From the NCBI GenBank assembly GCA_964521425.1, contig CAZFRO010000004.1, positions 209 through 64,208 of the forward strand: DNA of 64,000 nucleotides, in the 5' to 3' direction. Below, piece by piece: positions 15,050 to 56,950 of this stretch. The notes below the pieces were generated by a model. The model was not told the DNA's origin. It saw only the letters and a list, made by a program, of their open reading frames with translations, and ran no database searches. Position 1 is the stretch's first letter, and each line of letters begins with the position of its first letter. The position numbers and the translations under genes are program-made. The stretch comes from an uncultured bacterium. Lineage in GTDB: Bacteria > Joyebacterota > Joyebacteria > Joyebacterales > Joyebacteraceae.

Positions 15050-16990
15050 CTACCTGAGAAGCACCGTCTTGCGCGACTGCCGCCACTCGCCGGCGTCCGC
15101 GCGTATGAGGTAGATGCCTGATGCAACGAGTTCACCGCGGTCATCCGTGCCGTCCCACGGCACAGAATGGTCCCCTGCACTCAGGACTCCTGAGACAAGA
15201 GTCTTCACGAGTCTGCCGGAGACATCGAACACAAGCACCCTGGTCGCAGTTGCTGTCGGGAGCGACAGCTGGAGCACCGTAGCGTTCGTGAACGGGTTGG
15301 GCCTGCCTGGAGCGAGCGCAAATCGCGTGGGGTCGGACGGCACCGATGTGCCGCTCAGGGGACATGCACTCAGGTGGATGGTGAGATCGTCTTGCACCAC
15401 TCCACCGACTATGCCCGAAAGGTCGCGCGTGCTGAATGTGAGGATCGCTTCGTAGACAACGCCCGTCGGCGCCGAGACGTCGTCGAATACCACCCCGTAG
15501 TACGCGGGAGTCGATCCTGCTTCCTGGCTGGAGAAACCGCCGGCGATCGAGAAGAACCCTCCGCCGCCCACGATTTCGGCATCGTAGATCTCAAGCAGCG
15601 CTTGGAGGCTGTCGTATTCGAAGTTGTGGATGTCGATTCCCGCCTCGTCGAAATCGCCGGAGTCGTGTGTACCGAAATCGAGAGTGTTGACGAGGAGGAT
15701 CTCCGCCGCCGCAAGCGACGGCGCGGCGTGATTGAGCACCGTTCCAGAGAGAGCGATGCTCGCTGATGGCTGGTCGACATCGTTCGACGACACCGTCAGG
15801 TTACCTGCCTGCGCGCCGGCCGAGGAAGTGCTCATCGAGATAGTGTGTCCGCTGCTTCCACCGGAGGGCTCAGAGAAACCACCGCCGGGTGCTGTGAAAC
15901 CGGAAGGGGCGCCGAACGAGTAGTCGAGATCGTCCGCCGGTGAGATGGCGGAGTTGCCGACAGAGAGGATCTCCTCTGCGGTTGCACCGACGATCACATC
16001 GCCGAAGGCGAGTGATGACACGTAGTCGAGTTTCGCCGGCACCTGGAAGTCCGCGTAGACCGGGATGTGATCGGACGCTTCGTGAAGCGCATCGGCGATG
16101 ACCGACCCCACGGCGTAGTTCGTGCCGTAGTTGATGGCCTGGTTGAAGTGATAGCCGTCATTGCCGTAGGCAACGTGGCTTCCGGAAACGTACGAGAGGC
16201 CGTCACCGTCATCGAGAGCAGCGGAGATAAGAAGCAGGTCGAAACGGTCATCCATCCCGCCCGTTGCGCCTCCGCCGAACTGCGTTGTGCGTGGAGACTG
16301 CGTGTGGATGTACCTGTATGTGTAGCTGTCGTGCCAGGTCCCAGGCTGGTTGATGGGGTCCCACACCCGACCGTTGTTGTTCGCCTCACTTCCCACCAGC
16401 TTCTGGTATGCGGTCTCGGAACTTGCTCTGATGTTGTAATCGCCGGCGATGATGAAGTGGGTGCCGGGATTGTGATTGTTCGTGTGGTTCCTGAGTATCG
16501 TCGCCTCAGCCAGGCGCTTCGTCTTATCCGATGAAGTGGATCCGGCCTTCAAGTGGAGAGAGTAGACCGTGAGCTCCGCATCGGACGAGCTATAGCCTAC
16601 GGGGCGGAGGACGTACTCGGAGATGTTCCTGAGCGCCGTCGATATCTCCTGGTGGGAGATGTAGTCCACGGTGGCCGTGCGGTAGAAGAGGGCATTGTCG
16701 GTATCGTAGCCGTTCACGAACGGCCCGGCTGCGTATGTCCCCGGTACCGTGTAGTTCAGGATATCGTTCAGGAACTGGTTCGTGCCCGTCTGGCTGAGCA
16801 TCTCCTGCACGACGATTATGTCCGCGTCGAGTTCGTCCATGACCGTTACGAAGTCATCCTCACGGGCCGAGCCGGTTGAGCCGGGGAAGTTGAGTACATT
16901 GTACGTGACTACCCTGAGGCCGAGTGCCGTCTGGGGAAGAAGCGTGACGAGCAAGATCGCCACAAGTGTCAGGGCTTTCCCATATCGCAT
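15050..16990 (-). CDS. secreted endonuclease/exonuclease/phosphatase-family protein with Ig-like domains and FlgD-Ig/T9SS-like tail
   Basis: VVTYNVLNF, VVQE, HLKA, AGDYN, DRFD, SDHIPV; tail RPNPF...YLIR...KTVLLR. GGAGAG RBS. Confidence 0.85.
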   Translation of the reverse strand: MRYGKALTLVAILLVTLLPQTALGLRVVTYNVLNFPGSTGSAREDDFVTVMDELDADIIVVQEMLSQTGTNQFLNDILNYTVPGTYAAGPFVNGYDTDNALFYRTATVDYISHQEISTALRNISEYVLRPVGYSSSDAELTVYSLHLKAGSTSSDKTKRLAEATILRNHTNNHNPGTHFIIAGDYNIRASSETAYQKLVGSEANNNGRVWDPINQPGTWHDSYTYRYIHTQSPRTTQFGGGATGGMDDRFDLLLISAALDDGDGLSYVSGSHVAYGNDGYHFNQAINYGTNYAVGSVIADALHEASDHIPVYADFQVPAKLDYVSSLAFGDVIVGATAEEILSVGNSAISPADDLDYSFGAPSGFTAPGGGFSEPSGGSSGHTISMSTSSAGAQAGNLTVSSNDVDQPSASIALSGTVLNHAAPSLAAAEILLVNTLDFGTHDSGDFDEAGIDIHNFEYDSLQALLEIYDAEIVGGGGFFSIAGGFSSQEAGSTPAYYGVVFDDVSAPTGVVYEAILTFSTRDLSGIVGGVVQDDLTIHLSACPLSGTSVPSDPTRFALAPGRPNPFTNATVLQLSLPTATATRVLVFDVSGRLVKTLVSGVLSAGDHSVPWDGTDDRGELVASGIYLIRADAGEWRQSRKTVLLR

Positions 16991-26199: not shown

Positions 26200-27364
26200 T
26201 CATGCGTTCACACTGGCGTACAAGATGGGGCAGCTCATCGATGGCGAACAGGACGGCCAGCCGAACTCGGCGTCCACGGGTGACGACCTCATGACATCGA
26301 ATGACGAGGACGGCGTGGCGTTCACAACGAATCTCACCCCGGGCAGCACAGCCAGCGTGGCGATCGACATGACCACATGGTTCTGATCGACAGCGGTCTC
26401 GAAGAGTGGAAGTGGGAGCAGAGGCCGGACCTCAGCACGACGGGCATCGACGTGAACTGCACCGAGCCGTCCATCCTTGCCGATGACTTCCTCTGTGAAC
26501 AGCCCGGGCGTCTGACGCACATCGACATCTGGGGTTCCTGGCTCAGCGACTACTTGCCGTTTGGCGACAACCCCGTCGCGGTCGATTTCATACTGAGTCT
26601 CCACGAGGACATTCCAGCCGACGAGAGTCCGACCGGATTCAGCATGCCTGGCGATGTTCTCTGGATCCACCCGTTCCGGGGGGGGGCAGTTCACGGTCCA
26701 GATGTATGCGGACGGGATCGTCGAAGGTTGGATGGATCCGCCGGAGCAGTATATGTTCCCGGCCGATTAGACCTGCTGGATGTACTCGTTCGACATTCCG
26801 CCGGAGGAGGCGTTTCATCAGGTCGGTATGCCGGACTCGGGTGTTGTGTACTGGCTGGATGTCCAGGCGTACCCGCACGACTTCGAGGCGCTCTTCGGTT
26901 GGAAGACGACGCTCGATCACTGAAACGACGACGCGGTCTGGAGTATCGGGATGGAGCCCCACTGGGGTCCATGGAATGAGCTGATCTACCCGCCGCAGCA
27001 TGAGTTCGCGGGTCAGTCGATCGATCTGGCGTTCCGTCTGAGGATGGACTACGGAACGGACGTTCCTGATGAGGTCGTGCCAACGCGGCACAGCCTCCGT
27101 CAGAACGTCCCGAACCCGTTCAACCCGATGACGACCATCGCGTACGAGGTTTCAGCGGGCGGCGGCCAAGTGACCATCGAGGTCTACGATGTCGCGGGTA
27201 GGCTCGTGACGACACTCGTTAACGGTCTCGAGCCCGAGGGCGAGCAGACTGTCACGTGGGACGGACTCAATGCGAACGGCGAGCAGATGGCGACCGGCGT
27301 CTACTTCTACCGCATGCACGCTGAAGGCATCGAGTCCAGCAGGAAGATGCTGCTTCTCAAGTAG
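26200..27364 (+). pseudogene. multiply disrupted secreted protein (GEVED-associated DEDGV fragment, beta-sandwich domain, FlgD-Ig/T9SS-like tail)
   Basis: Frame break near 26380; +1 frameshift in G9 run 26678-26686; in-frame TAG 26768-26770 and TGA 26921-26923; intact tail VPNPFNP...KMLLLK. Confidence 0.75.
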
Positions 27365-38670: not shown

Positions 38671-38861
38671 CCTCGATACGTGGGCAAGTAGTGTTTCACC
38701 CACATCGGTGCAATAGACGTCATTGCGCTGGCTGGTCTGCGGCGGAACACACTAGCAAGACATCTTTGGGGAGAAGTATGCGTTCCTGGAAAGGGGGGAT
38801 GTGCAAACTGGATTGTGTTTTCGCGAGTGACATATCGTTCTTCATTTTTAGGAGGATGCAA

Positions 38862-39905
38862 ATGAAGGTCGCTTATTTCGCAGTGATTATGATCGTTGCT
38901 CTGAGCATGGTTGCCCTCGCCGTTTCGCCGACCAACGTCGCTCCTGTCAAGCAGAGCGTCGTCTCCGGCGTTGCGCACCCGACCGGTCGTGTCGGTGGTG
39001 AGACCATTGAGACCGCCACCGTGATCGCCGGGCTGCCGTTCTCGGATGCCGGTAACACGTGTGTTGCCATTGATGACTACGATGAGGTCTGCCCTTACTC
39101 GGGATCAACCTCAGCGGACCTCGTCTACGCGTTCTCGCCTGGCGTCGATGTCATTGTCGACATATTCCTGTGCATGTCCATGTACGACACAAAGGTCTAC
39201 GTGTACGAGGACATACACACACCGACCGCCCCGTATGCTTGCGTCGATGACGCTTCAGCATGTGGCGACTTCAACTCGTACATGTACCAGTCGTGGATTA
39301 CCGAGTTGACGCTCTACGCCGGTCACACCTACTACATCGTCGTCGACGGTTACGGTGGCGATTGTGGCGACTACGTCCTCGACATGTACCAGGTTGAGGA
39401 GTGCGTTGTCGAGTGTCCGCCAGGCGCAGTGCTTGAGGGTGAGGTCGACTGCTACCCGGACTACGTTGACGACTTCAACGGTGGTCTGAACAGCGACCCG
39501 CCCGTCTACTCGTACCTCGATTGTGCGCAGGATCTCGTCGTCTGCGGCACGATGGGTGTCTATGATTTCAACGGCACCTCGTACAGGGACACTGATTGGT
39601 ACATCCTCCCGATCACTGAGGGTGCGACCATTACGATGGGTGTTGAGGCTGAAATCGGCGTTCTCTTCGGCTTCGTTGACCTGTCAACTGGCGGGCTCCT
39701 TGAGTACACCGTGGCAGCGAGCTGCACGTACTCGACGGTCACACACATCTACGCCGGCGCTGCTGACGCCGCGTTCGTCGTGTTGCCTGACGATTGGGAT
39801 CTAGGCTACGCCTGTGGTTCCGACTACTACATGACAATCGACGGTTGCCCGATCGTGGCAGTCGAAGAGTCAAGCTGGGGTTCCATCAAGGCTCTCTACA
39901 GGTAG
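38862..39905 (+). CDS. secreted Cys/Asp-rich protein with two PPC-like beta-sandwich modules and C-terminal SWGSIKALYR motif
   Basis: Signal peptide; GETIETAT..LPFSDAGNT; DTKVYVY; YYIVVDGYGG; RDTDWY; tail AVEESSWGSIKALYR. Confidence 0.8.
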   Translation: MKVAYFAVIMIVALSMVALAVSPTNVAPVKQSVVSGVAHPTGRVGGETIETATVIAGLPFSDAGNTCVAIDDYDEVCPYSGSTSADLVYAFSPGVDVIVDIFLCMSMYDTKVYVYEDIHTPTAPYACVDDASACGDFNSYMYQSWITELTLYAGHTYYIVVDGYGGDCGDYVLDMYQVEECVVECPPGAVLEGEVDCYPDYVDDFNGGLNSDPPVYSYLDCAQDLVVCGTMGVYDFNGTSYRDTDWYILPITEGATITMGVEAEIGVLFGFVDLSTGGLLEYTVAASCTYSTVTHIYAGAADAAFVVLPDDWDLGYACGSDYYMTIDGCPIVAVEESSWGSIKALYR

Positions 39906-39944
39906 TTTAGTATGAAGAAACCAGTGCAGCAGTAGCACTGGCGA

Positions 39945-39985
39945 AGAATGCGCCCCGCCTGGCTGATGCCGGGCGGGGCGTTTCT
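39945..39985 (+). terminator. intrinsic terminator, copy 1
   Basis: CGCCCCGCCTGGC-TGAT-GCCGGGCGGGGCG then TTTCT. Confidence 0.75.
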
Positions 39986-40078
39986 GTGATATGCTACTCA
40001 ATACAGGAGACTCCTCCGGAACCACGCTCTCTCGAATGACAGGTCGTCCATCTCGCTCTCCAATCGAGGAGGATGCAA

Positions 40079-41122
40079 ATGAAGACTGCTGGTCTTGCAG
40101 TGATCATGGTTGTCGTGCTTGGCGTGGTTGCTCTCGCTGTCTCGCCGACCAACGTCGCCCCCATGAAGAACAGCGTTGTCTCCGGCGTTCCGCACCCGAC
40201 CGGCCGCGTCGGTGGTGAGACCATTGAGACCGCCACCGTGATCGCCGGGCTGCCGTTCTCGGATGCCGGCAACACGTGCGAGTTCGTGCATGATTACGAT
40301 GAGTCCTGCCCCTACGCGGGATCAACCTCGCCGGACTGCGTCTACTCGTTTGCGGCCGGCGCCGATATGCTCGTCGACATATTCCTGTGCATGTCCACCT
40401 ACGATACCAAGGTGTTCGTGTACGAGGATGTATACACACCCGGCATCCCACTTGCCTGTATCGATGACAGCTACGACTGCGAGGAGTTCAACACGTACAT
40501 GTACCAGTCGTGGCTCACCGAGGTCGCGTTGTACGCCGGTCACACCTACTACATAGTCGTAGACGGTTACGGTGGCGACTGTGGCGACTACATCCTCGAC
40601 ATCTACGAGGTTGAGGTGTGCGCCGTCTAATGCCCGCTGGGCGCGATCCTCGAGGGTGAGGTCGACTGCTACCCGGACTACGTTGACGACTTCAACGGTG
40701 GTCCCAGCGGCATCCCGCCCGCCTACTCGTACGTCGATTGCGATCAGAATATCGTGATCTGCGGCACGTCGGGTGTCTTCCCGTTCGGCGCTAACACCTA
40801 CAGGGACACCGATTGGTACGTGCTCCCGCTTGCTGAGGGTGCGACCGTTACGATCGGCATTGAGGCCGAGTTCAGCGCGCTTCTTGGTTTCGTCGATATG
40901 GAAGCCATGGTGCTCATGGAGTACACCATGCCACCGACGTGCACGTACGCGACGGTCTCACACGTCTATGCCGAAGCCGGCGACGCAGTGATCTTCGTCT
41001 CGACGGACGCCTGGGATCTGAGCTTCGACTGCGGTTCCGATTACTACCTGACAATCGACGGTTGCCCGATCGTGGCGGTCGAAGAGGCGAGTTGGGGTTC
41101 CATCAAAGCTCTCTACAGGTAA
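40079..41122 (+). pseudogene. paralogue of 38862..39905 with one premature TAA
   Basis: TAA at 40628-40630 where copy 1 has GAG (Glu); the frame continues to SWGSIKALYR at 41122. Confidence 0.85.
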
Positions 41123-41161
41123 TGTAGAACGAAGAACCCAGTGCAGCGATGGCACTGGCGG

Positions 41162-41210
41162 AGAATGCGCCCCGCCTGGCTGATGCCGGGCGGGGCGTTT
41201 CTGTTTGTTT
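41162..41210. terminator. intrinsic terminator, copy 2 (also faces the convergent ABC operon)
   Basis: Same hairpin as copy 1, followed by TTTCTGTTTGTTT. Confidence 0.75.
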
Positions 41211-52300: not shown

Positions 52301-54175
52301 CTCAGCGCCTCAATCGGGGCCTACCGCGCCGACAACGGCGAGCTCTACACGGAGGTCTTCTCCGATTCGCTGGCGGGCGGGCGCTATGAGATAACACTCC
52401 CGTATTTCAACTACACGCTCAAGGTGCGCGCCTACCATCACATTCCCGAGAATCGTGGTGTGGTAGTGGACGCGCCCGATCAAGGGGAGACGTTCTTCCT
52501 TGAGCCGACGCTTGCGAACATACTCCTGATCTCGGATGGCGGCTCGAAGTCGGAGACGGTCAAGTTCGACAAGACGGGAAACGTACTCGATGTCTACACA
52601 GGTGAGCAGGACTCCGCGTCGGACGATATCGAGGTGGACCTTGTCGCGCTCGGCTACGACGTCGTAGTTGAGACGGCCACGGCTACGAATCCTGCCACGT
52701 GGGTTGACTACGACTTCGTCATCTCATCGAGCGGCAACAACACGAGCCCGGTGTCAAGCTCAACCTACCGCTCAAACCTAGAGAGCTACGTTGCTGGTGG
52801 CGGGAAGCTTCTCATCGAAGGTGGCGAGATCGCCTACGATGCTGTCAGCTATCCGGGCTATCCGACGTTCGCGGCCAACGTTCTTCACGTGACTTCGTGG
52901 GGCCACGACTCAAGCGGCAATGTCACCGTCTACGATGCGGCGCATCCGATCACAACGTTCCCGAATACGATCGGTACGATCAACGTCGCCTACTCAGGCT
53001 ACGGGGATCATGACTCTCAGACCCCCATGCCGGACGCCGACATCGTCTGCAGCTGGTCGAGTTACCCCACGCTCTCGAGTGTCCAGGTCTACGACGACAC
53101 GCCTGATCCAGCGAGCGGCCAGATAGTCTTCTACGCGTTCAACTATGGCGCTGCCGACGTAGCAGGGCGGAAGGACCTTCTCGAGAACACCGTGACCTAT
53201 CTCGTCACACCCGAGAGCCAGGCGAACGGCAGCACATCAGGCACGGTCATGCTGGCAGGTGAGACGAACCACAGCGGCGTTACGGTCACGTTGACGCCGG
53301 GCGAGCTCTCGACCGTCACGGCGGAGGACGGGAGCTGGCTTGTCGAGGATCTCTACGATGGGATCTACACAGTCACGGCTCGAAAGGAAACCTGGGGCAC
53401 GGCGGTCGTGCACGATGTCGTCGTTGCGGCAGGCGCGCATGTGAGCGGCATCGACTTCGTGTTGTTCCCGGTCACGGTCTACGAGTACTGCGAGAATCCA
53501 GCGCTTCCGATCCCGGATTCGGACCCGATCGGTGTCTACGACCAGCTGCAGTTCCTGGACGAGGCCACGGTCACGGATGTCGAGGTGTATCTGAACCTGA
53601 CGCACACCTACATCGGCGACCTCGTCGTTGAGATCACGTCGCCCGAGGGCACGACCGTGCGCCTGCACAGCTCGTCCGGTGGCAGCGCCAACGACATCAT
53701 CGGATGGTATCCATCGGAACTCTCAGTCGGTGGTCCGGGCTCGCTCGACGATTTCATGGGCGAGAACGCGCTCGGCGAGTGGGAGATCTGGGTGAGCGAC
53801 AACGCGGGCGGCGACACCGGGACGCTCAACACATGGTGTGTGAGGGTGACGACCAGCTCGACGTGGACGGGCGTCGACGATGAGTTCGATGCGCCGAGAT
53901 CATATGTGCTCGGTGGTGTTGCTCCGAACCCGTTCAATCCGGTGACGACAGTGACCTACGGCGCGCCGCAGCCGGGTGACGTAGTGCTCGCCATCTACAA
54001 CATCGCGGGCCAGCGAGTCAGAACGCTCGTTGACGGTCCGGTTGAGGCGGGCTTCCACACAGCGATCTGGAACGGCCGGGACAACGACGGTCGCTCGGTC
54101 GCATCCGGCGTCTACTTCTGCAGGATGCAGGCTGAGAGCTTCGACGACGCTGTGAAGATGGTATTGCTCAAGTAG
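49307..54175 (+). CDS. gingipain-like C25 cysteine protease (propeptide, catalytic, Ig, accessory, P-domain, FlgD-Ig/T9SS-like tail)
   Basis: GAPNLP, TPFQYNP, LLLGD, SDNIYG, DHGGETGW (His), SINCLTG (Cys), HTYIGDL P-domain, tail APNPFNP...KMVLLK. Confidence 0.88.
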   Translation: MRVAPWVLAVLVLMASVSPARTIVFEENVGQAGLAVEQSSDSFIEISYKLSEISIEDIDVDGEILQQILMSGLALPNDEGAPNLPGVGRLMALPEGAIPHLEILSAKAQVFTGIDVLPAPDIPLENDDTPPVYIKDQSVYSQNAPYPAEFVRISEVHQMRGVDVTTLGITPFQYNPITRELTVYTDVEVRVTFDGGTGHFGEDAYRSRYWDPILEANLVNYELLPEIEYGVLSSRDTEYEYVIICPDNPTYTVWADSIKQWRVEQGIDTGVVTLTETGATTTDIENWINYAYDNWTTKPVAILLLGDYVTSGGTTGITSPIYNGYCVSDNIYGDRDGDHLPEIVMARMTATPGNIETLVMKAISYERAPPTNPDFYQNPIMACGWQTERWFQLCTEIVYGYFANVHGKTPVREYAIYSGSPGGVWSSNQNTGMLVDYFGPDGLGYIPETSAHLTDWGGNATRINADINSGAFLLQHRDHGGETGWGEPDYQASDLAGLSNNDLPFVFSINCLTGKYNWSGECFSETFHRMDHGALGVVAASEVSYSFVNDTFVFGIYDEMFPDFDPGYPAKGRFNESNGVMRPAFANASGKHYLWASSWPYNPGDKTVTYNLFHSHSDAFTQLYSEVPEVLTITHQGVLPIGAAAFNITADVGSIVALTIDGEIIGVADGTGAPMDMVVIPAIAPGIVRLTVTKPNYYRYSEDVPVIYPVTYTIVPATIPVNTTTDVTITVWDDESNLEPDVVITIDGWGIDAIVDTTDVNGEAVLTVTAPYGEDLTVLGSRISETYDCLSDVLPVTGGTAFASVDIEASVPSIGLYGFLAPYYEGTISGTASETGFDLYAQGCGIDANANSGGATTVDILDTCTSTGTVHAAIGKSGFNIYLEDILVDVVYGTLAGSVDENGGGPLDGAKVKGYASGADTSMVDPIFAALSGVDGAYAVEGDLEIGYYDVYVLKFGYLTHTEELFVQYDLNDVDFLLDPAPSGLVRGSVFQVGTLNPLSASIGAYRADNGELYTEVFSDSLAGGRYEITLPYFNYTLKVRAYHHIPENRGVVVDAPDQGETFFLEPTLANILLISDGGSKSETVKFDKTGNVLDVYTGEQDSASDDIEVDLVALGYDVVVETATATNPATWVDYDFVISSSGNNTSPVSSSTYRSNLESYVAGGGKLLIEGGEIAYDAVSYPGYPTFAANVLHVTSWGHDSSGNVTVYDAAHPITTFPNTIGTINVAYSGYGDHDSQTPMPDADIVCSWSSYPTLSSVQVYDDTPDPASGQIVFYAFNYGAADVAGRKDLLENTVTYLVTPESQANGSTSGTVMLAGETNHSGVTVTLTPGELSTVTAEDGSWLVEDLYDGIYTVTARKETWGTAVVHDVVVAAGAHVSGIDFVLFPVTVYEYCENPALPIPDSDPIGVYDQLQFLDEATVTDVEVYLNLTHTYIGDLVVEITSPEGTTVRLHSSSGGSANDIIGWYPSELSVGGPGSLDDFMGENALGEWEIWVSDNAGGDTGTLNTWCVRVTTSSTWTGVDDEFDAPRSYVLGGVAPNPFNPVTTVTYGAPQPGDVVLAIYNIAGQRVRTLVDGPVEAGFHTAIWNGRDNDGRSVASGVYFCRMQAESFDDAVKMVLLK

Positions 54176-54439: not shown

Positions 54440-56950
54440 ATGTTCGCACGAGACCGCAGCAGCGCATGGCTCTCGCACGCCGCGCTCCTTACAGTCCTGG
54501 TCGCTCTCGCCACATCGGCGGTTCCGGTAGGCGCGGCTGACGCTGTGCCGACGGCGTACACTGCCGACGTGCTCCCTCTGGAGACGGTGGAACTTCTGCG
54601 AGCACCGATAGTAGATCGTGCGGAGCTGTCCATCGAGGATGAGCTTCGTGAGGACCAGGGACTCCCGCCGCGCTATGCGATCTCCAATGCGGTCTCCATC
54701 TCCCCGGCGACCGATGGTACCTGGGAGGATGTGGATTTCGCGACCAGGCTCTGGCGTCTCAGAATCACGTCTGACGGAGCCTCGTCGATCAACCTCGGTT
54801 TCGGTCGGTATCACATGCCCGCGACCGGAAGCCTTCTCATCTACGCCGCGGACGGCTCGCACATCGCCGGTCCGTATACTGACCTGGACAACGAGGATCA
54901 CGGCGAGCTTTGGACACCGGTTGTGCTCTCCGACGATGTAGTCATTGAACTCACCATCGCTACGAAGGCAGCAGACGATCTGGAGTTGGAGCTCGGCTCG
55001 GTCAACGTAGGTTACCGTGGCTTCGGCGAGCTCATCGACAGAAGCCCGGGATGGTGCAACATAGACGTCGTCTGTCCCGATGGTGACGGCTGGCGCGACG
55101 ATATCGCCTCGGTCGGCGTCATCTCAACCGGCGGCTCCACCTTCTGCACCGGTTTCATGGTGAACAACACAGCACAGGATGCGACTCCCTACTTCATGAC
55201 AGCGAATCACTGCGGCATCAACACCGGTAACGCAGCCTCGCTCGTCGTCTACTGGAACTATGAGAGTCCGAACTGCGGCGATCTTGGTGGGGGATCGTTC
55301 AGCGACAACCAGACCGGCTCCTACTTCAGGGCCGGGTACTCAACCTCCGACTTCACGCTGGTCGAGCTCGATTCCGATCCGGACCCGGGCCACGGCGTTA
55401 CGTTCGCCGGCTGGGACCGCACGACGGCGAATCCGACAAGTTCGACTGCCATCCATCAGCCTGATGCCGACGTGAAGTGCATCAGCTTCGAGTATGACGC
55501 TTGCCAGACAACGAGCTATCTCGGTACGAGCCAGCCCGGCGACGGCTCGCACGTGCGCGTCGTCGATTGGGACGTCGGCACGACAGAGCCTGGTTCGTCC
55601 GGCTCGCCGCTGTTTGACCAGAATCACCGCATCGTTGGTCAGCTCCACGGCGGTTATGCGGCGTGCGGCAACGACGACTCCGACTGGTACGGACGGATCT
55701 CGACATCGTGGACCGGCGGCGGCTCGAGCAGCTCGCGCCTGAGCGACTGGCTGGATCCTGCATCAACGGGTGCTACGACGGTCGATCTCTACTCGCCGTT
55801 CGCAGCCGGGATGCGTGTGACACCGTCGTCCGCTGCCGTATCGGAAGGCGCCTCCGGCGGCCCGTTCACTCCGAGCCAGTTCATCTACACGGTAGAGAAT
55901 CAGGATGACACGGGGATCGACTACAGCGTCTCGAAGAGCGCGACGTGGATCACCCTCACAAACGGCAGCGGCCATCTGAACGCTCACGCAACGGTGAATG
56001 TGACGGTCACGATCAACTCTGCTGCCAACTCTCTCGGGAACGGTGCCTACACCGATCGTCTGGATTTTGTGAACGAGACCGATCACGTCGGCGACACATC
56101 GAGGGATGTCACTCTCACGGTTGGTCTTCCCGAACTTGCCCATAGCTTCCCGCTGGACACCGATCCCGGTTGGACGACGAGCGGGCTCTGGGCGTTCGGT
56201 AGTCCGACCGGCGGCGGCGGCGAGTACGGCAATGCGGATCCGACGTCGGGGCACACGAGTTCCAACGTCTACGGCTACAATCTTGCCGGCGACTACGAGA
56301 ATGGCCTTGCCGAGCGTCACCTGACGACCACGGCGATCGACTGTTCCGATCTTGGCACAGTGACCGTCAAGTTCTGGCGCTGGCTCAATGTCGAGCGCAG
56401 CCAGTACGATCATGCCTACCTGCACGTGAGCAACGACGGCTCGTCGTGGGAGACTATCTGGAGCAACCCGGACAGCCACACTGAGGACTCCTCCTGGTCG
56501 CAGCTCGAGTACGACATCTCATCGGTCGCGGCTGAGCAGTCGACCGTCTATCTTCGCTGGACCATGGGTGCCACTGACGGCAGCTGGCAGTTCTCCGGCT
56601 GGAACATCGATGATGTTGAGATCTGGGGTCTGTCGATGGGTGGAACCGGTGTGATCGATCCGGGCGCCGAGACGAGGCTCGCATTGTCACCCGCCTACCC
56701 GAACCCGTTCGGTCCGGCGGCCAGCGTACAGTTCTCGCTCCCCGAGCGTTCGCACATGACGCTTAAGGTCTACGACGCAGCGGGCCGGTTCGTGCGCACG
56801 CTCGAGAGTGGACCCATGGATGCCGGTTCACACGTGGCGGTTTGGGATGGGCGTGATGCAAGTGGCGAGCGTGTTGCCGCAGGCGTCTACTTCGCCCGTA
56901 TGCAGACCGACGGTTTCGATGACGCCGTCAAGATGGTTTTGATCAAGTAG
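54440..56950 (+). CDS. secreted lysyl-endopeptidase-like (S1) serine protease with accessory domains and FlgD-Ig/T9SS-like tail
   Basis: CNIDVVC, CTGFMVNN, TANHC (His), DFTL (Asp), TEPGSSGSPL (Ser), QLHGG..SDWYGR, tail YPNPF...KMVLIK. Confidence 0.88.
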   Translation: MFARDRSSAWLSHAALLTVLVALATSAVPVGAADAVPTAYTADVLPLETVELLRAPIVDRAELSIEDELREDQGLPPRYAISNAVSISPATDGTWEDVDFATRLWRLRITSDGASSINLGFGRYHMPATGSLLIYAADGSHIAGPYTDLDNEDHGELWTPVVLSDDVVIELTIATKAADDLELELGSVNVGYRGFGELIDRSPGWCNIDVVCPDGDGWRDDIASVGVISTGGSTFCTGFMVNNTAQDATPYFMTANHCGINTGNAASLVVYWNYESPNCGDLGGGSFSDNQTGSYFRAGYSTSDFTLVELDSDPDPGHGVTFAGWDRTTANPTSSTAIHQPDADVKCISFEYDACQTTSYLGTSQPGDGSHVRVVDWDVGTTEPGSSGSPLFDQNHRIVGQLHGGYAACGNDDSDWYGRISTSWTGGGSSSSRLSDWLDPASTGATTVDLYSPFAAGMRVTPSSAAVSEGASGGPFTPSQFIYTVENQDDTGIDYSVSKSATWITLTNGSGHLNAHATVNVTVTINSAANSLGNGAYTDRLDFVNETDHVGDTSRDVTLTVGLPELAHSFPLDTDPGWTTSGLWAFGSPTGGGGEYGNADPTSGHTSSNVYGYNLAGDYENGLAERHLTTTAIDCSDLGTVTVKFWRWLNVERSQYDHAYLHVSNDGSSWETIWSNPDSHTEDSSWSQLEYDISSVAAEQSTVYLRWTMGATDGSWQFSGWNIDDVEIWGLSMGGTGVIDPGAETRLALSPAYPNPFGPAASVQFSLPERSHMTLKVYDAAGRFVRTLESGPMDAGSHVAVWDGRDASGERVAAGVYFARMQTDGFDDAVKMVLIK

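Follow-up and report, generated by a model that had tools for sequence, protein, structure and literature searches.

A 16-residue C-terminal tail on unrelated secreted proteins of uncultured bacteria: a candidate sorting or anchoring tag

Introduction

Two designs of C-terminal sorting signal are known. In the first, exemplified by LPXTG/sortase, PEP-CTERM/exosortase, GlyGly-CTERM/rhombosortase and MYXO-CTERM/myxosortase, a short tripartite signal ends dozens of proteins per proteome; it consists of a signature motif with several invariant residues, a membrane-spanning segment and a cluster of Arg residues, and it is found on proteins with signal peptides and unrelated passengers. In the second, the signal is a folded C-terminal domain (CTD) of type IX secretion (T9SS); PorU removes it, and the protein is attached to lipopolysaccharide. 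Here we describe a 16-residue C-terminal tail from a 64,000-nucleotide stretch of DNA of an uncultured bacterium (the window; GenBank assembly GCA_964521425.1, contig CAZFRO010000004.1, positions 209 to 64,208), where it closes both members of a tandem gene pair at 38850-41205. The tail resembles the tripartite signals in being short, C-terminal and present dozens of times per proteome, and in its signature motif, signal peptides and unrelated passengers. It differs from them in having neither a membrane-spanning segment nor an Arg cluster, and no cognate enzyme was found for it in the searches reported below.

The T9SS type A CTD (TIGR04183 / PF18962; in the genome studied here FlgD_ig, PF13860) also has much in common with the tail. 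Both stand at the very end of Sec-exported proteins whose passengers are unrelated, are present many times in a genome, combine hydrophobic residues with a basic last residue, and are found in Bacteroidota relatives (FCB group) that encode SprA and PorU; they may also share a conserved Lys 5-6 residues from the end. In type A CTDs a near-invariant, functionally important Lys near the C-terminus touches PorV, and the translocon grips the CTD as a β-sandwich of given size and shape, with ~1850 square angstroms buried (PMC10994853). In contrast to this ~80-residue, seven-stranded β-sandwich, the tail has 16 residues, shows no similarity to it in searches with hidden Markov models (HMMs) or profiles, and is flexible in AlphaFold2 (AF2) models instead of forming a domain; its cargo is much smaller and Cys-rich. 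Shortened T9SS CTDs occur in Prevotella intermedia, where a PT/GI cleavage motif was found by mass spectrometry (PMC11969387). These short CTDs keep the PT/GI motif and the terminal basic motif E, together with motifs B and D, and their alignment reaches roughly position 60. With about a quarter of that length, the tail has neither motif B nor motif D.

A further analogy is offered by the anchoring cohesins of cellulosomes of the ScaE type, in which a single cohesin module is followed by a C-terminal signal, as in one widespread family of tail proteins; such a layout would be expected of an anchor that displays dockerin-bearing partners at the surface. Single-cohesin anchors such as ScaE of Ruminococcus flavefaciens bear a sortase signal; they are Gram-positive proteins that sortase attaches to the wall, whereas the host of the tail is diderm.

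Results

A fixed motif at the extreme C-terminus

The genome under study, 2.45 Mb in size and Eisenbacteria-like, was searched in six frames with the regular expression WG.[ILVM]K..[YFW]; open reading frames (ORFs) were called crudely. The search returned 42 ORFs. The motif lies at most 5 residues from the stop in 41 of them, exactly one residue follows it in 35, and in one ORF it is internal. An HMM of the last 17 residues (E<0.05) matched 50 ORFs, 49 of them within 12 residues of the stop. The consensus spans 16 residues, [ST]-[PA]-V-E-x-x-[ST]-W-G-x-[IV]-K-[ASG]-[LM]-Y-R-COOH. Trp, Gly and Lys were imposed by the regular expression; among the residues that were not imposed, four are 88-97% conserved at fixed spacing, namely Val at -14 (32/34 tails), Glu at -13 (30/34), Ser or Thr at -10 (33/34) and Arg at -1 (31/34). 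Further upstream, [ST] at -16 and Pro at -15 are each present in 24/34, and in 20/34 a Cys occurs among the nine residues that precede the box. At the nucleotide level the pattern TGGGGNNNNRTNAARNNNNNNTWYMGNTRR, which encodes W-G-x-[IVLM]-K-x-x-[YF]-R-stop, has 34 matches in this genome and the reversed control has 0.

The original prediction, made from the tandem pair, was that the tail is an unnamed C-terminal sorting signal. As to position it is borne out by these searches of the proteome, and homologues agree: in two families, 107/121 and 119/120 proteins have a single residue between the Tyr and the stop, and no internal copies were found among the 154 tails of related loci (at least 117 loci). 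A logo drawn from these 154 tails is biased at the positions fixed by the search pattern.

The only internal copy in the genome, ...TTVENISWGVIKALYRASDEGEPPGKG..., takes the place of a short loop in an ORF at C9:10085-10867. The domain concerned is otherwise homologous to the C18 tail proteins, and no tail follows at the end of the ORF, which looks like a pseudogene formed by rearrangement or recombination.

The tail was also expected to differ from known sorting signals. Ten 45-residue tails had no match to Pfam or NCBIfam models at E<=10, and literature searches by the tail motif, and by Eisenbacteria with T9SS or sorting signals, gave no relevant description. One part of the prediction, that the tail is amphipathic, does not single it out: modeled as a helix or as a strand, its hydrophobic moment is equaled by 23-28% of shuffled sequences. 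We therefore rejected amphipathicity as the reason for the motif.

The tail occurs on many unrelated secreted proteins

The roughly 50 tail ORFs make up about 2.4% of the genes of this genome and stand alongside 124 CTD genes. When the tail is removed, 42 tail proteins fall into at least 26 clusters without mutual BLASTP similarity at 1e-5; the motif thus extends beyond the family in which it was noticed. Representatives match Chlam_PMP repeats, FG-GAP, LTD, Cleaved_Adhesin and Beta_helix/NosD in Pfam, and several match nothing. Among the passengers overall are β-helices and PMP repeats, FG-GAP, LTD and cleaved-adhesin domains, cohesin folds and sandwiches like collagen-binding domains.

Tail proteins were predicted to be secreted. 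Using a simple, crude heuristic, we called signal-peptide-like N-termini in 33/40 tail proteins (82%) and 93/123 CTD proteins, against 28% of other proteins, in agreement with that prediction; 6/41 tail proteins are lipoprotein-like. Tail proteins are smaller than CTD proteins (median 251 vs 708 residues, p = 6e-15) and richer in Cys (2.9% vs 1.15%).

Models of two unrelated families place the tail outside the fold. The proteins of the tandem pair, described below, form the first. In the second, which is tailed throughout (119/120 homologues), the model is a single cohesin-type sandwich with a predicted local distance difference test score (pLDDT) above 92, and the tail is undocked and weakly helical at pLDDT 49-54. 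Genes for such proteins of ~190 residues, one cohesin-fold module plus tail, stand in tandem arrays of 2-4 (C22:165-2637; L010, L039, L075), and arrays of this kind are present in many related genomes.

The tail takes the place of the T9SS CTD on homologous passengers

The FlgD-Ig proteins of this genome, about 115-124 in number, are T9SS CTD proteins. The tail had been said to sit where the FlgD-Ig domain sits in other secreted proteins. This holds true: the genome has 124 CTD ORFs, and for 18/42 tail proteins there is a paralogue in which the same passenger bears a CTD instead of the tail; some of these pairs can be aligned over nearly their full length. CTDs here end in [RK]-K-[ML]-V-L-L-[KR]-COOH, to which the I-K-A-L-Y-R-COOH of the tail bears a loose resemblance that serves as a lead only. 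The possibility that the tail is the start or a remnant of a FlgD-Ig CTD was rejected, since a motif of the form W[GSTA]x[ILVM][KR] was found in the 50 residues upstream of the CTD in 0/124 CTD proteins and the profiles of tail and CTD do not match (see Discussion).

A different box, [ST]-G-[VI]-x-[DE], mostly TGVxD, precedes the CTD by 14-22 residues in 54/124 CTD proteins, against a background of 0.05 per 50 residues. It is a candidate cleavage-site motif for PorU. Examples in the window are the CTD proteins that end near 15092-15256, 27134-27325, 53972-54136 and 56720-56908. The box may recall the PT/GI motif of P. intermedia and, more loosely, the [ST]-P-V-E of the tail; we take this as a lead only.

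The tail in other genomes

All 31 genomes of the GTDB phylum of the window contain the DNA pattern, with 13-67 matches each and 0 in the control. A second small phylum-level group is positive in 12/12 genomes (18-53 matches; control 0), and in a third group 197 of 208 genomes are positive, with 0-47 matches per genome and 2 control matches in total. Tails are thus found on thousands of further proteins across several uncultured phyla, in up to 67 copies per genome. A stricter pattern, applied to one genome per GTDB species, gave at least 117 loci. The loci listed bear the NCBI names Eisenbacteria, Krumholzibacteriota, Latescibacterota, 'Gemmatimonadota' and Effluviviaceae, although labels of metagenome-assembled genomes (MAGs) are loose.

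Genes of the T9SS and the search for a reader

The genome encodes SprA (C2:55666-61197, 522 bits) and PorU (C8:99329-102661, 518 bits; cut-off 420). SprA is present in 30/31 and 25/26 genomes of two tail-carrying sets and in 200/208 genomes of the third group, whatever the tail count. It was not found at E<=1e-30 in six tail-rich MAGs and in two with 1 and 7 matches, although with two candidate regions scored per genome it may have been missed.

Most tail-rich lineages have a divergent SprA. In the third group, a clade with 0-3 tail matches (G069-G080) has SprA at E ~1e-114 to 1e-151 on TIGR04189, with exceptions at 1e-92 and 1e-72, and most other genomes of the group lie at ~1e-50 to 1e-70. 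Strong SprA together with tails is seen in G232 of the same group (12 matches, 4e-122) and in G053 of another set (33 matches, 1e-94).

A PorU paralogue at C35:3350-6322 is 24% identical to PorU (219 bits) and retains the His/Cys dyad. Each of the two PorU-type C25 peptidases has a C-terminal CTD whose junction, I-R-[DN]-V-A-N-H-P-N-P-F, is unusual. The paralogue was considered as a tail-specific sortase and, at this resolution, rejected, since genomes with no tail match or a single one (G254, G257) are among those that match it best. A conserved sortase-like neighbor was likewise rejected as the reader; in the loci listed cargo families alone recur.

Tail genes adjoin a CTD gene in 12/40 cases, where 2000 label shuffles gave a mean of 4.6 and a maximum of 14. 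Transport of a tail protein on the back of an adjacent CTD protein was rejected as a general mechanism, because 28/40 tail genes have no such neighbor.

The genome also has two short secretin genes of ~400-470 residues (C16:8176-8658 and C1:198336-198827). One stands in a pilMNOPQ-like context, as far as the order and sizes of the genes show; the other stands by itself, flanked by genes whose products, judged by eye, resemble TldD/PmbA, thioredoxin reductase and a transposase.

The tandem gene pair

The region 38850-41205 contains two tandem genes of equal length in the same frame, each with an AGGAGG and a terminator-like hairpin (Table 1). Aligned with each other, the two copies, of 347 residues each, show an identity of 80% at the DNA level and 71% at the protein level. 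Copy 1 ends in ...DGCPIVAVEESSWGSIKALYR followed by TAG and copy 2 in ...DGCPIVAVEEASWGSIKALYR followed by TAA, which gives the common end IVAVEE[SA]SWGSIKALYR-stop. That this tail is almost invariant beside diverging domains, as first noticed, is reflected in the numbers: the last 25 codons are 92% identical in protein, as against 48-64% in the four blocks before them. The true start of both copies is probably the second ATG (38862 and 40079), because it lies 6 nt after AGGAGG and gives 347 residues as in homologues, which begin MK....

Table 1. Features of the tandem gene pair, with positions in the window.
Feature	Position	Strand	Basis and remarks
Ribosome-binding site of copy 1, AGGAGG	38850..38855	+	sequence; 6 nt before second ATG, 38862
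Copy 1, intact gene, 347 residues	38862..39905	+	ORF and translation; in-frame ATG also at 38856
Layout of copy 1: signal peptide, two collagen-binding-domain-like β-sandwiches, tail			AF2 and translation
Probable signal peptide of copy 1, MKVAYFAVIMIVALSMVALA	38862..38921	+	hydrophobic N-terminus; AF2 helix at residues 4-19; cleavage site inferred
16-residue C-terminal tag of copy 1, VAVEESSWGSIKALYR, then TAG	39855..39902	+	genome-wide profile match
GC-rich hairpin and T-run, terminator-like, 3' of copy 1	39950..39986	+	duplicated along with the gene
Ribosome-binding site of copy 2, AGGAGG	40067..40072	+	sequence
Copy 2, broken by a single stop codon, frame and length as copy 1	40079..41122	+	
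In-frame TAA of copy 2	40628..40630	+	all close homologues, like copy 1, have Glu here
16-residue C-terminal tag of copy 2, VAVEEASWGSIKALYR, then TAA	41072..41119	+	sequence and tail HMM
Hairpin and T-run, terminator-like, 3' of copy 2	41167..41210	+	same sequence as after copy 1

The copy 1 protein has at least 673 homologues of ~350 residues; searched whole, the proteins of both copies matched no family in Pfam or NCBIfam. The AF2 model of copy 1, based on 62 homologues in the alignment, has a mean pLDDT of 85.7 and consists of a signal-peptide helix and two β-sandwiches, and its best match in the PDB is the tandem collagen-binding domain of ColG (5iku, E = 1.7e-9). As modeled, the protein is a pair of binding modules with no catalytic domain. 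The tail (residues 331-349; pLDDT 56-64) forms a short helix at 341-348 that is not packed against the fold.

Copy 2 was described as having the same length as copy 1 and one change of Glu to TAA without other damage. This is what the alignment shows: there are no indels, the TAA is the sole lesion, and a search of the genome with the protein returns copy 2 as a full-length match holding this one TAA. By sequence comparison the duplication is old, because the copies, at 80% identity in DNA, are separated by a synonymous distance (dS) of 0.47. The five other species of the same genus have one intact copy each. In a closer relative, represented by two metagenome contigs, neither member of the tandem pair is interrupted and the position of the TAA codes for Glu; its orthologues are 90% identical to copy 1 and 82-83% to copy 2. 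Measured against its orthologue, copy 2 has a ratio of nonsynonymous to synonymous substitution (dN/dS) of 0.28 upstream and 0.26 downstream of the TAA, and thus selection on copy 2 is not visibly relaxed. The TAA is therefore very recent, polymorphic or an assembly error. The further claim that copy 2 was inactivated recently fits the unrelaxed dN/dS; a sequencing error is possible.

Compared with the same relative (38862-41122 vs L119:746-3006), copy 1 has a dS of 0.13 and copy 2 a dS of 0.33. The difference suggests gene conversion, differing rates, or that the pair of the relative is not strictly orthologous.

Discussion

The tail exists as a portable, strictly C-terminal element of signal-peptide-bearing proteins; it lies outside the fold and swaps with the T9SS CTD. 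Most probably it serves, in one way or another, as a tag for sorting or anchoring, and neither the databases nor the literature searched describe it. Export, anchoring, any cleavage and a connection to the T9SS are proposals of the scheme that we put forward here.

Haft's account (10.1101/2023.06.07.544157) gives eight attributes of small C-terminal sorting domains, and the tail shares attributes 1, 2, 3, 6, 7 and 8. The last three of these are signal peptides, pairs of proteins that are otherwise dissimilar, and homologues with another sorting signal. The two that it lacks are attribute 4, a hydrophobic transmembrane segment (two of the nine residues after the Trp are charged), and attribute 5, a terminal cluster of 2-5 basic residues (there is one terminal Arg, and Lys at -5). 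Without a membrane helix the precursor would be soluble in the periplasm and not tethered to the inner membrane, and therefore no substrate for an intramembrane sorting protease. In its logic the tail appears nearer to the T9SS than to sortase-like systems. It also does not resemble the β-signal of outer-membrane proteins, a terminal Phe or Trp on a barrel strand, since it ends in Arg (31/34) and its passengers, unlike β-barrels, are soluble β-sandwiches and β-helices.

We propose the following scheme. Sec would export the tagged proteins to the periplasm, where they would fold; many are small and Cys-rich and may form disulfides. The flexible tail would then be recognized, sequence-specifically and by its free C-terminus, at the outer membrane; amphipathicity does not explain its conserved residue order. 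The likeliest reader would be the T9SS itself or one of its accessories, and on small proteins made of binding modules the tail would have the role that the ~80-residue FlgD-Ig CTD has on large proteins. The outcome would be passage across the outer membrane and a hold on the cell surface, with the [ST]PVE box as a possible site of tail cleavage or attachment. Judged by analogy, the cargo (single cohesins and tandem binding modules) would be useful mainly if kept on the cell, which favors retention. For export and surface retention coupled to the T9SS as the route, we put our confidence at somewhat less than even. The narrower proposal, that it forms a third class of signal for type IX secretion beside the type A and type B CTDs, is tentative.

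Several points speak against coupling to the T9SS. The profile of the tail aligns to the genome's own CTD profile with an hhalign probability of only 0.2%, and the conserved Lys, at -5 in tails (where the regular expression requires it), is offset by one residue from that of CTDs, at -6. A 16-residue peptide cannot fill the CTD-shaped pocket of SprA/PorV. SprA is near-universal regardless of tail count; therefore its co-occurrence with the tail fits T9SS dependence without discriminating power, and we discarded it as a test. Clustering of 732 non-overlapping ORFs around the at least 117 loci revealed no recurring neighbor gene other than cargo. Tail-rich clades have one PorU-type match each, and the PorU paralogue is not specific to them. 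Thus neither the neighborhood nor the PorU and SprA searches found a cognate reader or processing enzyme. Finally, with two secretins encoded, the T9SS is not the sole possible route across the outer membrane, and we do not take it as exclusive.

Some of these points favor a dedicated reader independent of the T9SS, such as an outer-membrane or periplasmic receptor or transpeptidase, perhaps with a secretin-type channel, in a pathway parallel to that of the CTDs. The tail profile is unrelated to the CTD, the tail is too small for the SprA/PorV pocket, and the two secretins might provide a channel. The strictness of the free C-terminus (35/42 with one residue after the Tyr) suggests a PDZ-like or chaperone-like carboxylate pocket, and tail counts range from 0 to 47 among 208 genomes of which 200 have SprA. 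However, the neighborhoods of the at least 117 loci offer no candidate gene, one secretin is in a pilMNOPQ-like setting and the other stands alone, and every tail-rich lineage seen falls in groups with a near-universal T9SS. We regard a dedicated reader as possible, if doubtful.

The tail could also be a docking peptide, left unprocessed and carrying no export signal. Like a miniature dockerin it would attach, without a covalent bond, to a receptor module, lipopolysaccharide or a scaffold at the surface, and would keep small binding proteins in place. Its cargo consists mostly of binding modules, including single cohesin folds; it is flexible with a weak helical propensity, and its aromatic and basic residues (Trp, Tyr, Lys, Arg) would be typical of interfacial and glycan contacts. 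But docking leaves the crossing of the outer membrane unexplained, a generic membrane anchor is unlikely at an amphipathicity no higher than that of shuffles, and the swap with a true secretion domain in paralogues points to an equivalent role in sorting. This explanation is rather unlikely.

It is improbable that the tail serves turnover or maturation, and not location, as a tag for a periplasmic tail-specific protease or quality-control factor. Tail-specific proteases such as Prc/CtpA recognize C-terminal peptides, and the strict dependence of the motif on the C-terminus is consistent with such a tag. However, Prc-type enzymes favor apolar ends and the motif closes with Arg, there is no obvious rationale for marking ~50 unrelated secreted binding proteins in this way, and the CTD swap argues for sorting. 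That the tail is no signal, but a motif arisen by chance or the conserved terminus of a single large family of homologous domains, can be dismissed almost entirely: shared ancestry would account for the identity within the two copies alone, but not for at least 26 clusters that are dissimilar outside the tail and have differing Pfam domains and folds, for 34 matches against 0 in the reversed control, or for a tail that lies outside both AF2 folds.

A sorting or anchoring tag of this kind would mark a large unannotated share of the surface proteome of uncultured bacteria from soil and sediment, in at least three phylum-level groups. It departs from both known designs of C-terminal sorting signal, the membrane helix with Arg cluster and the folded CTD; reading it should therefore call for either a novel mechanism of recognition or a novel ability of the T9SS. 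If the tail does prove to be a third class of type IX signal, a linear peptide of 16 residues would route small, folded, disulfide-rich proteins through SprA or a dedicated shuttle and fix them on the surface, with [ST]PVE as the cut-and-attach site; the T9SS would then read a linear code, and the tail would be a minimal export tag. Compared with an 80-residue CTD, such a tag would be economical on proteins of 150-250 residues, and, if transferable, it would be attractive for export or display in protein engineering. An HMM of the tail would better annotate thousands of secreted proteins now called 'hypothetical'.

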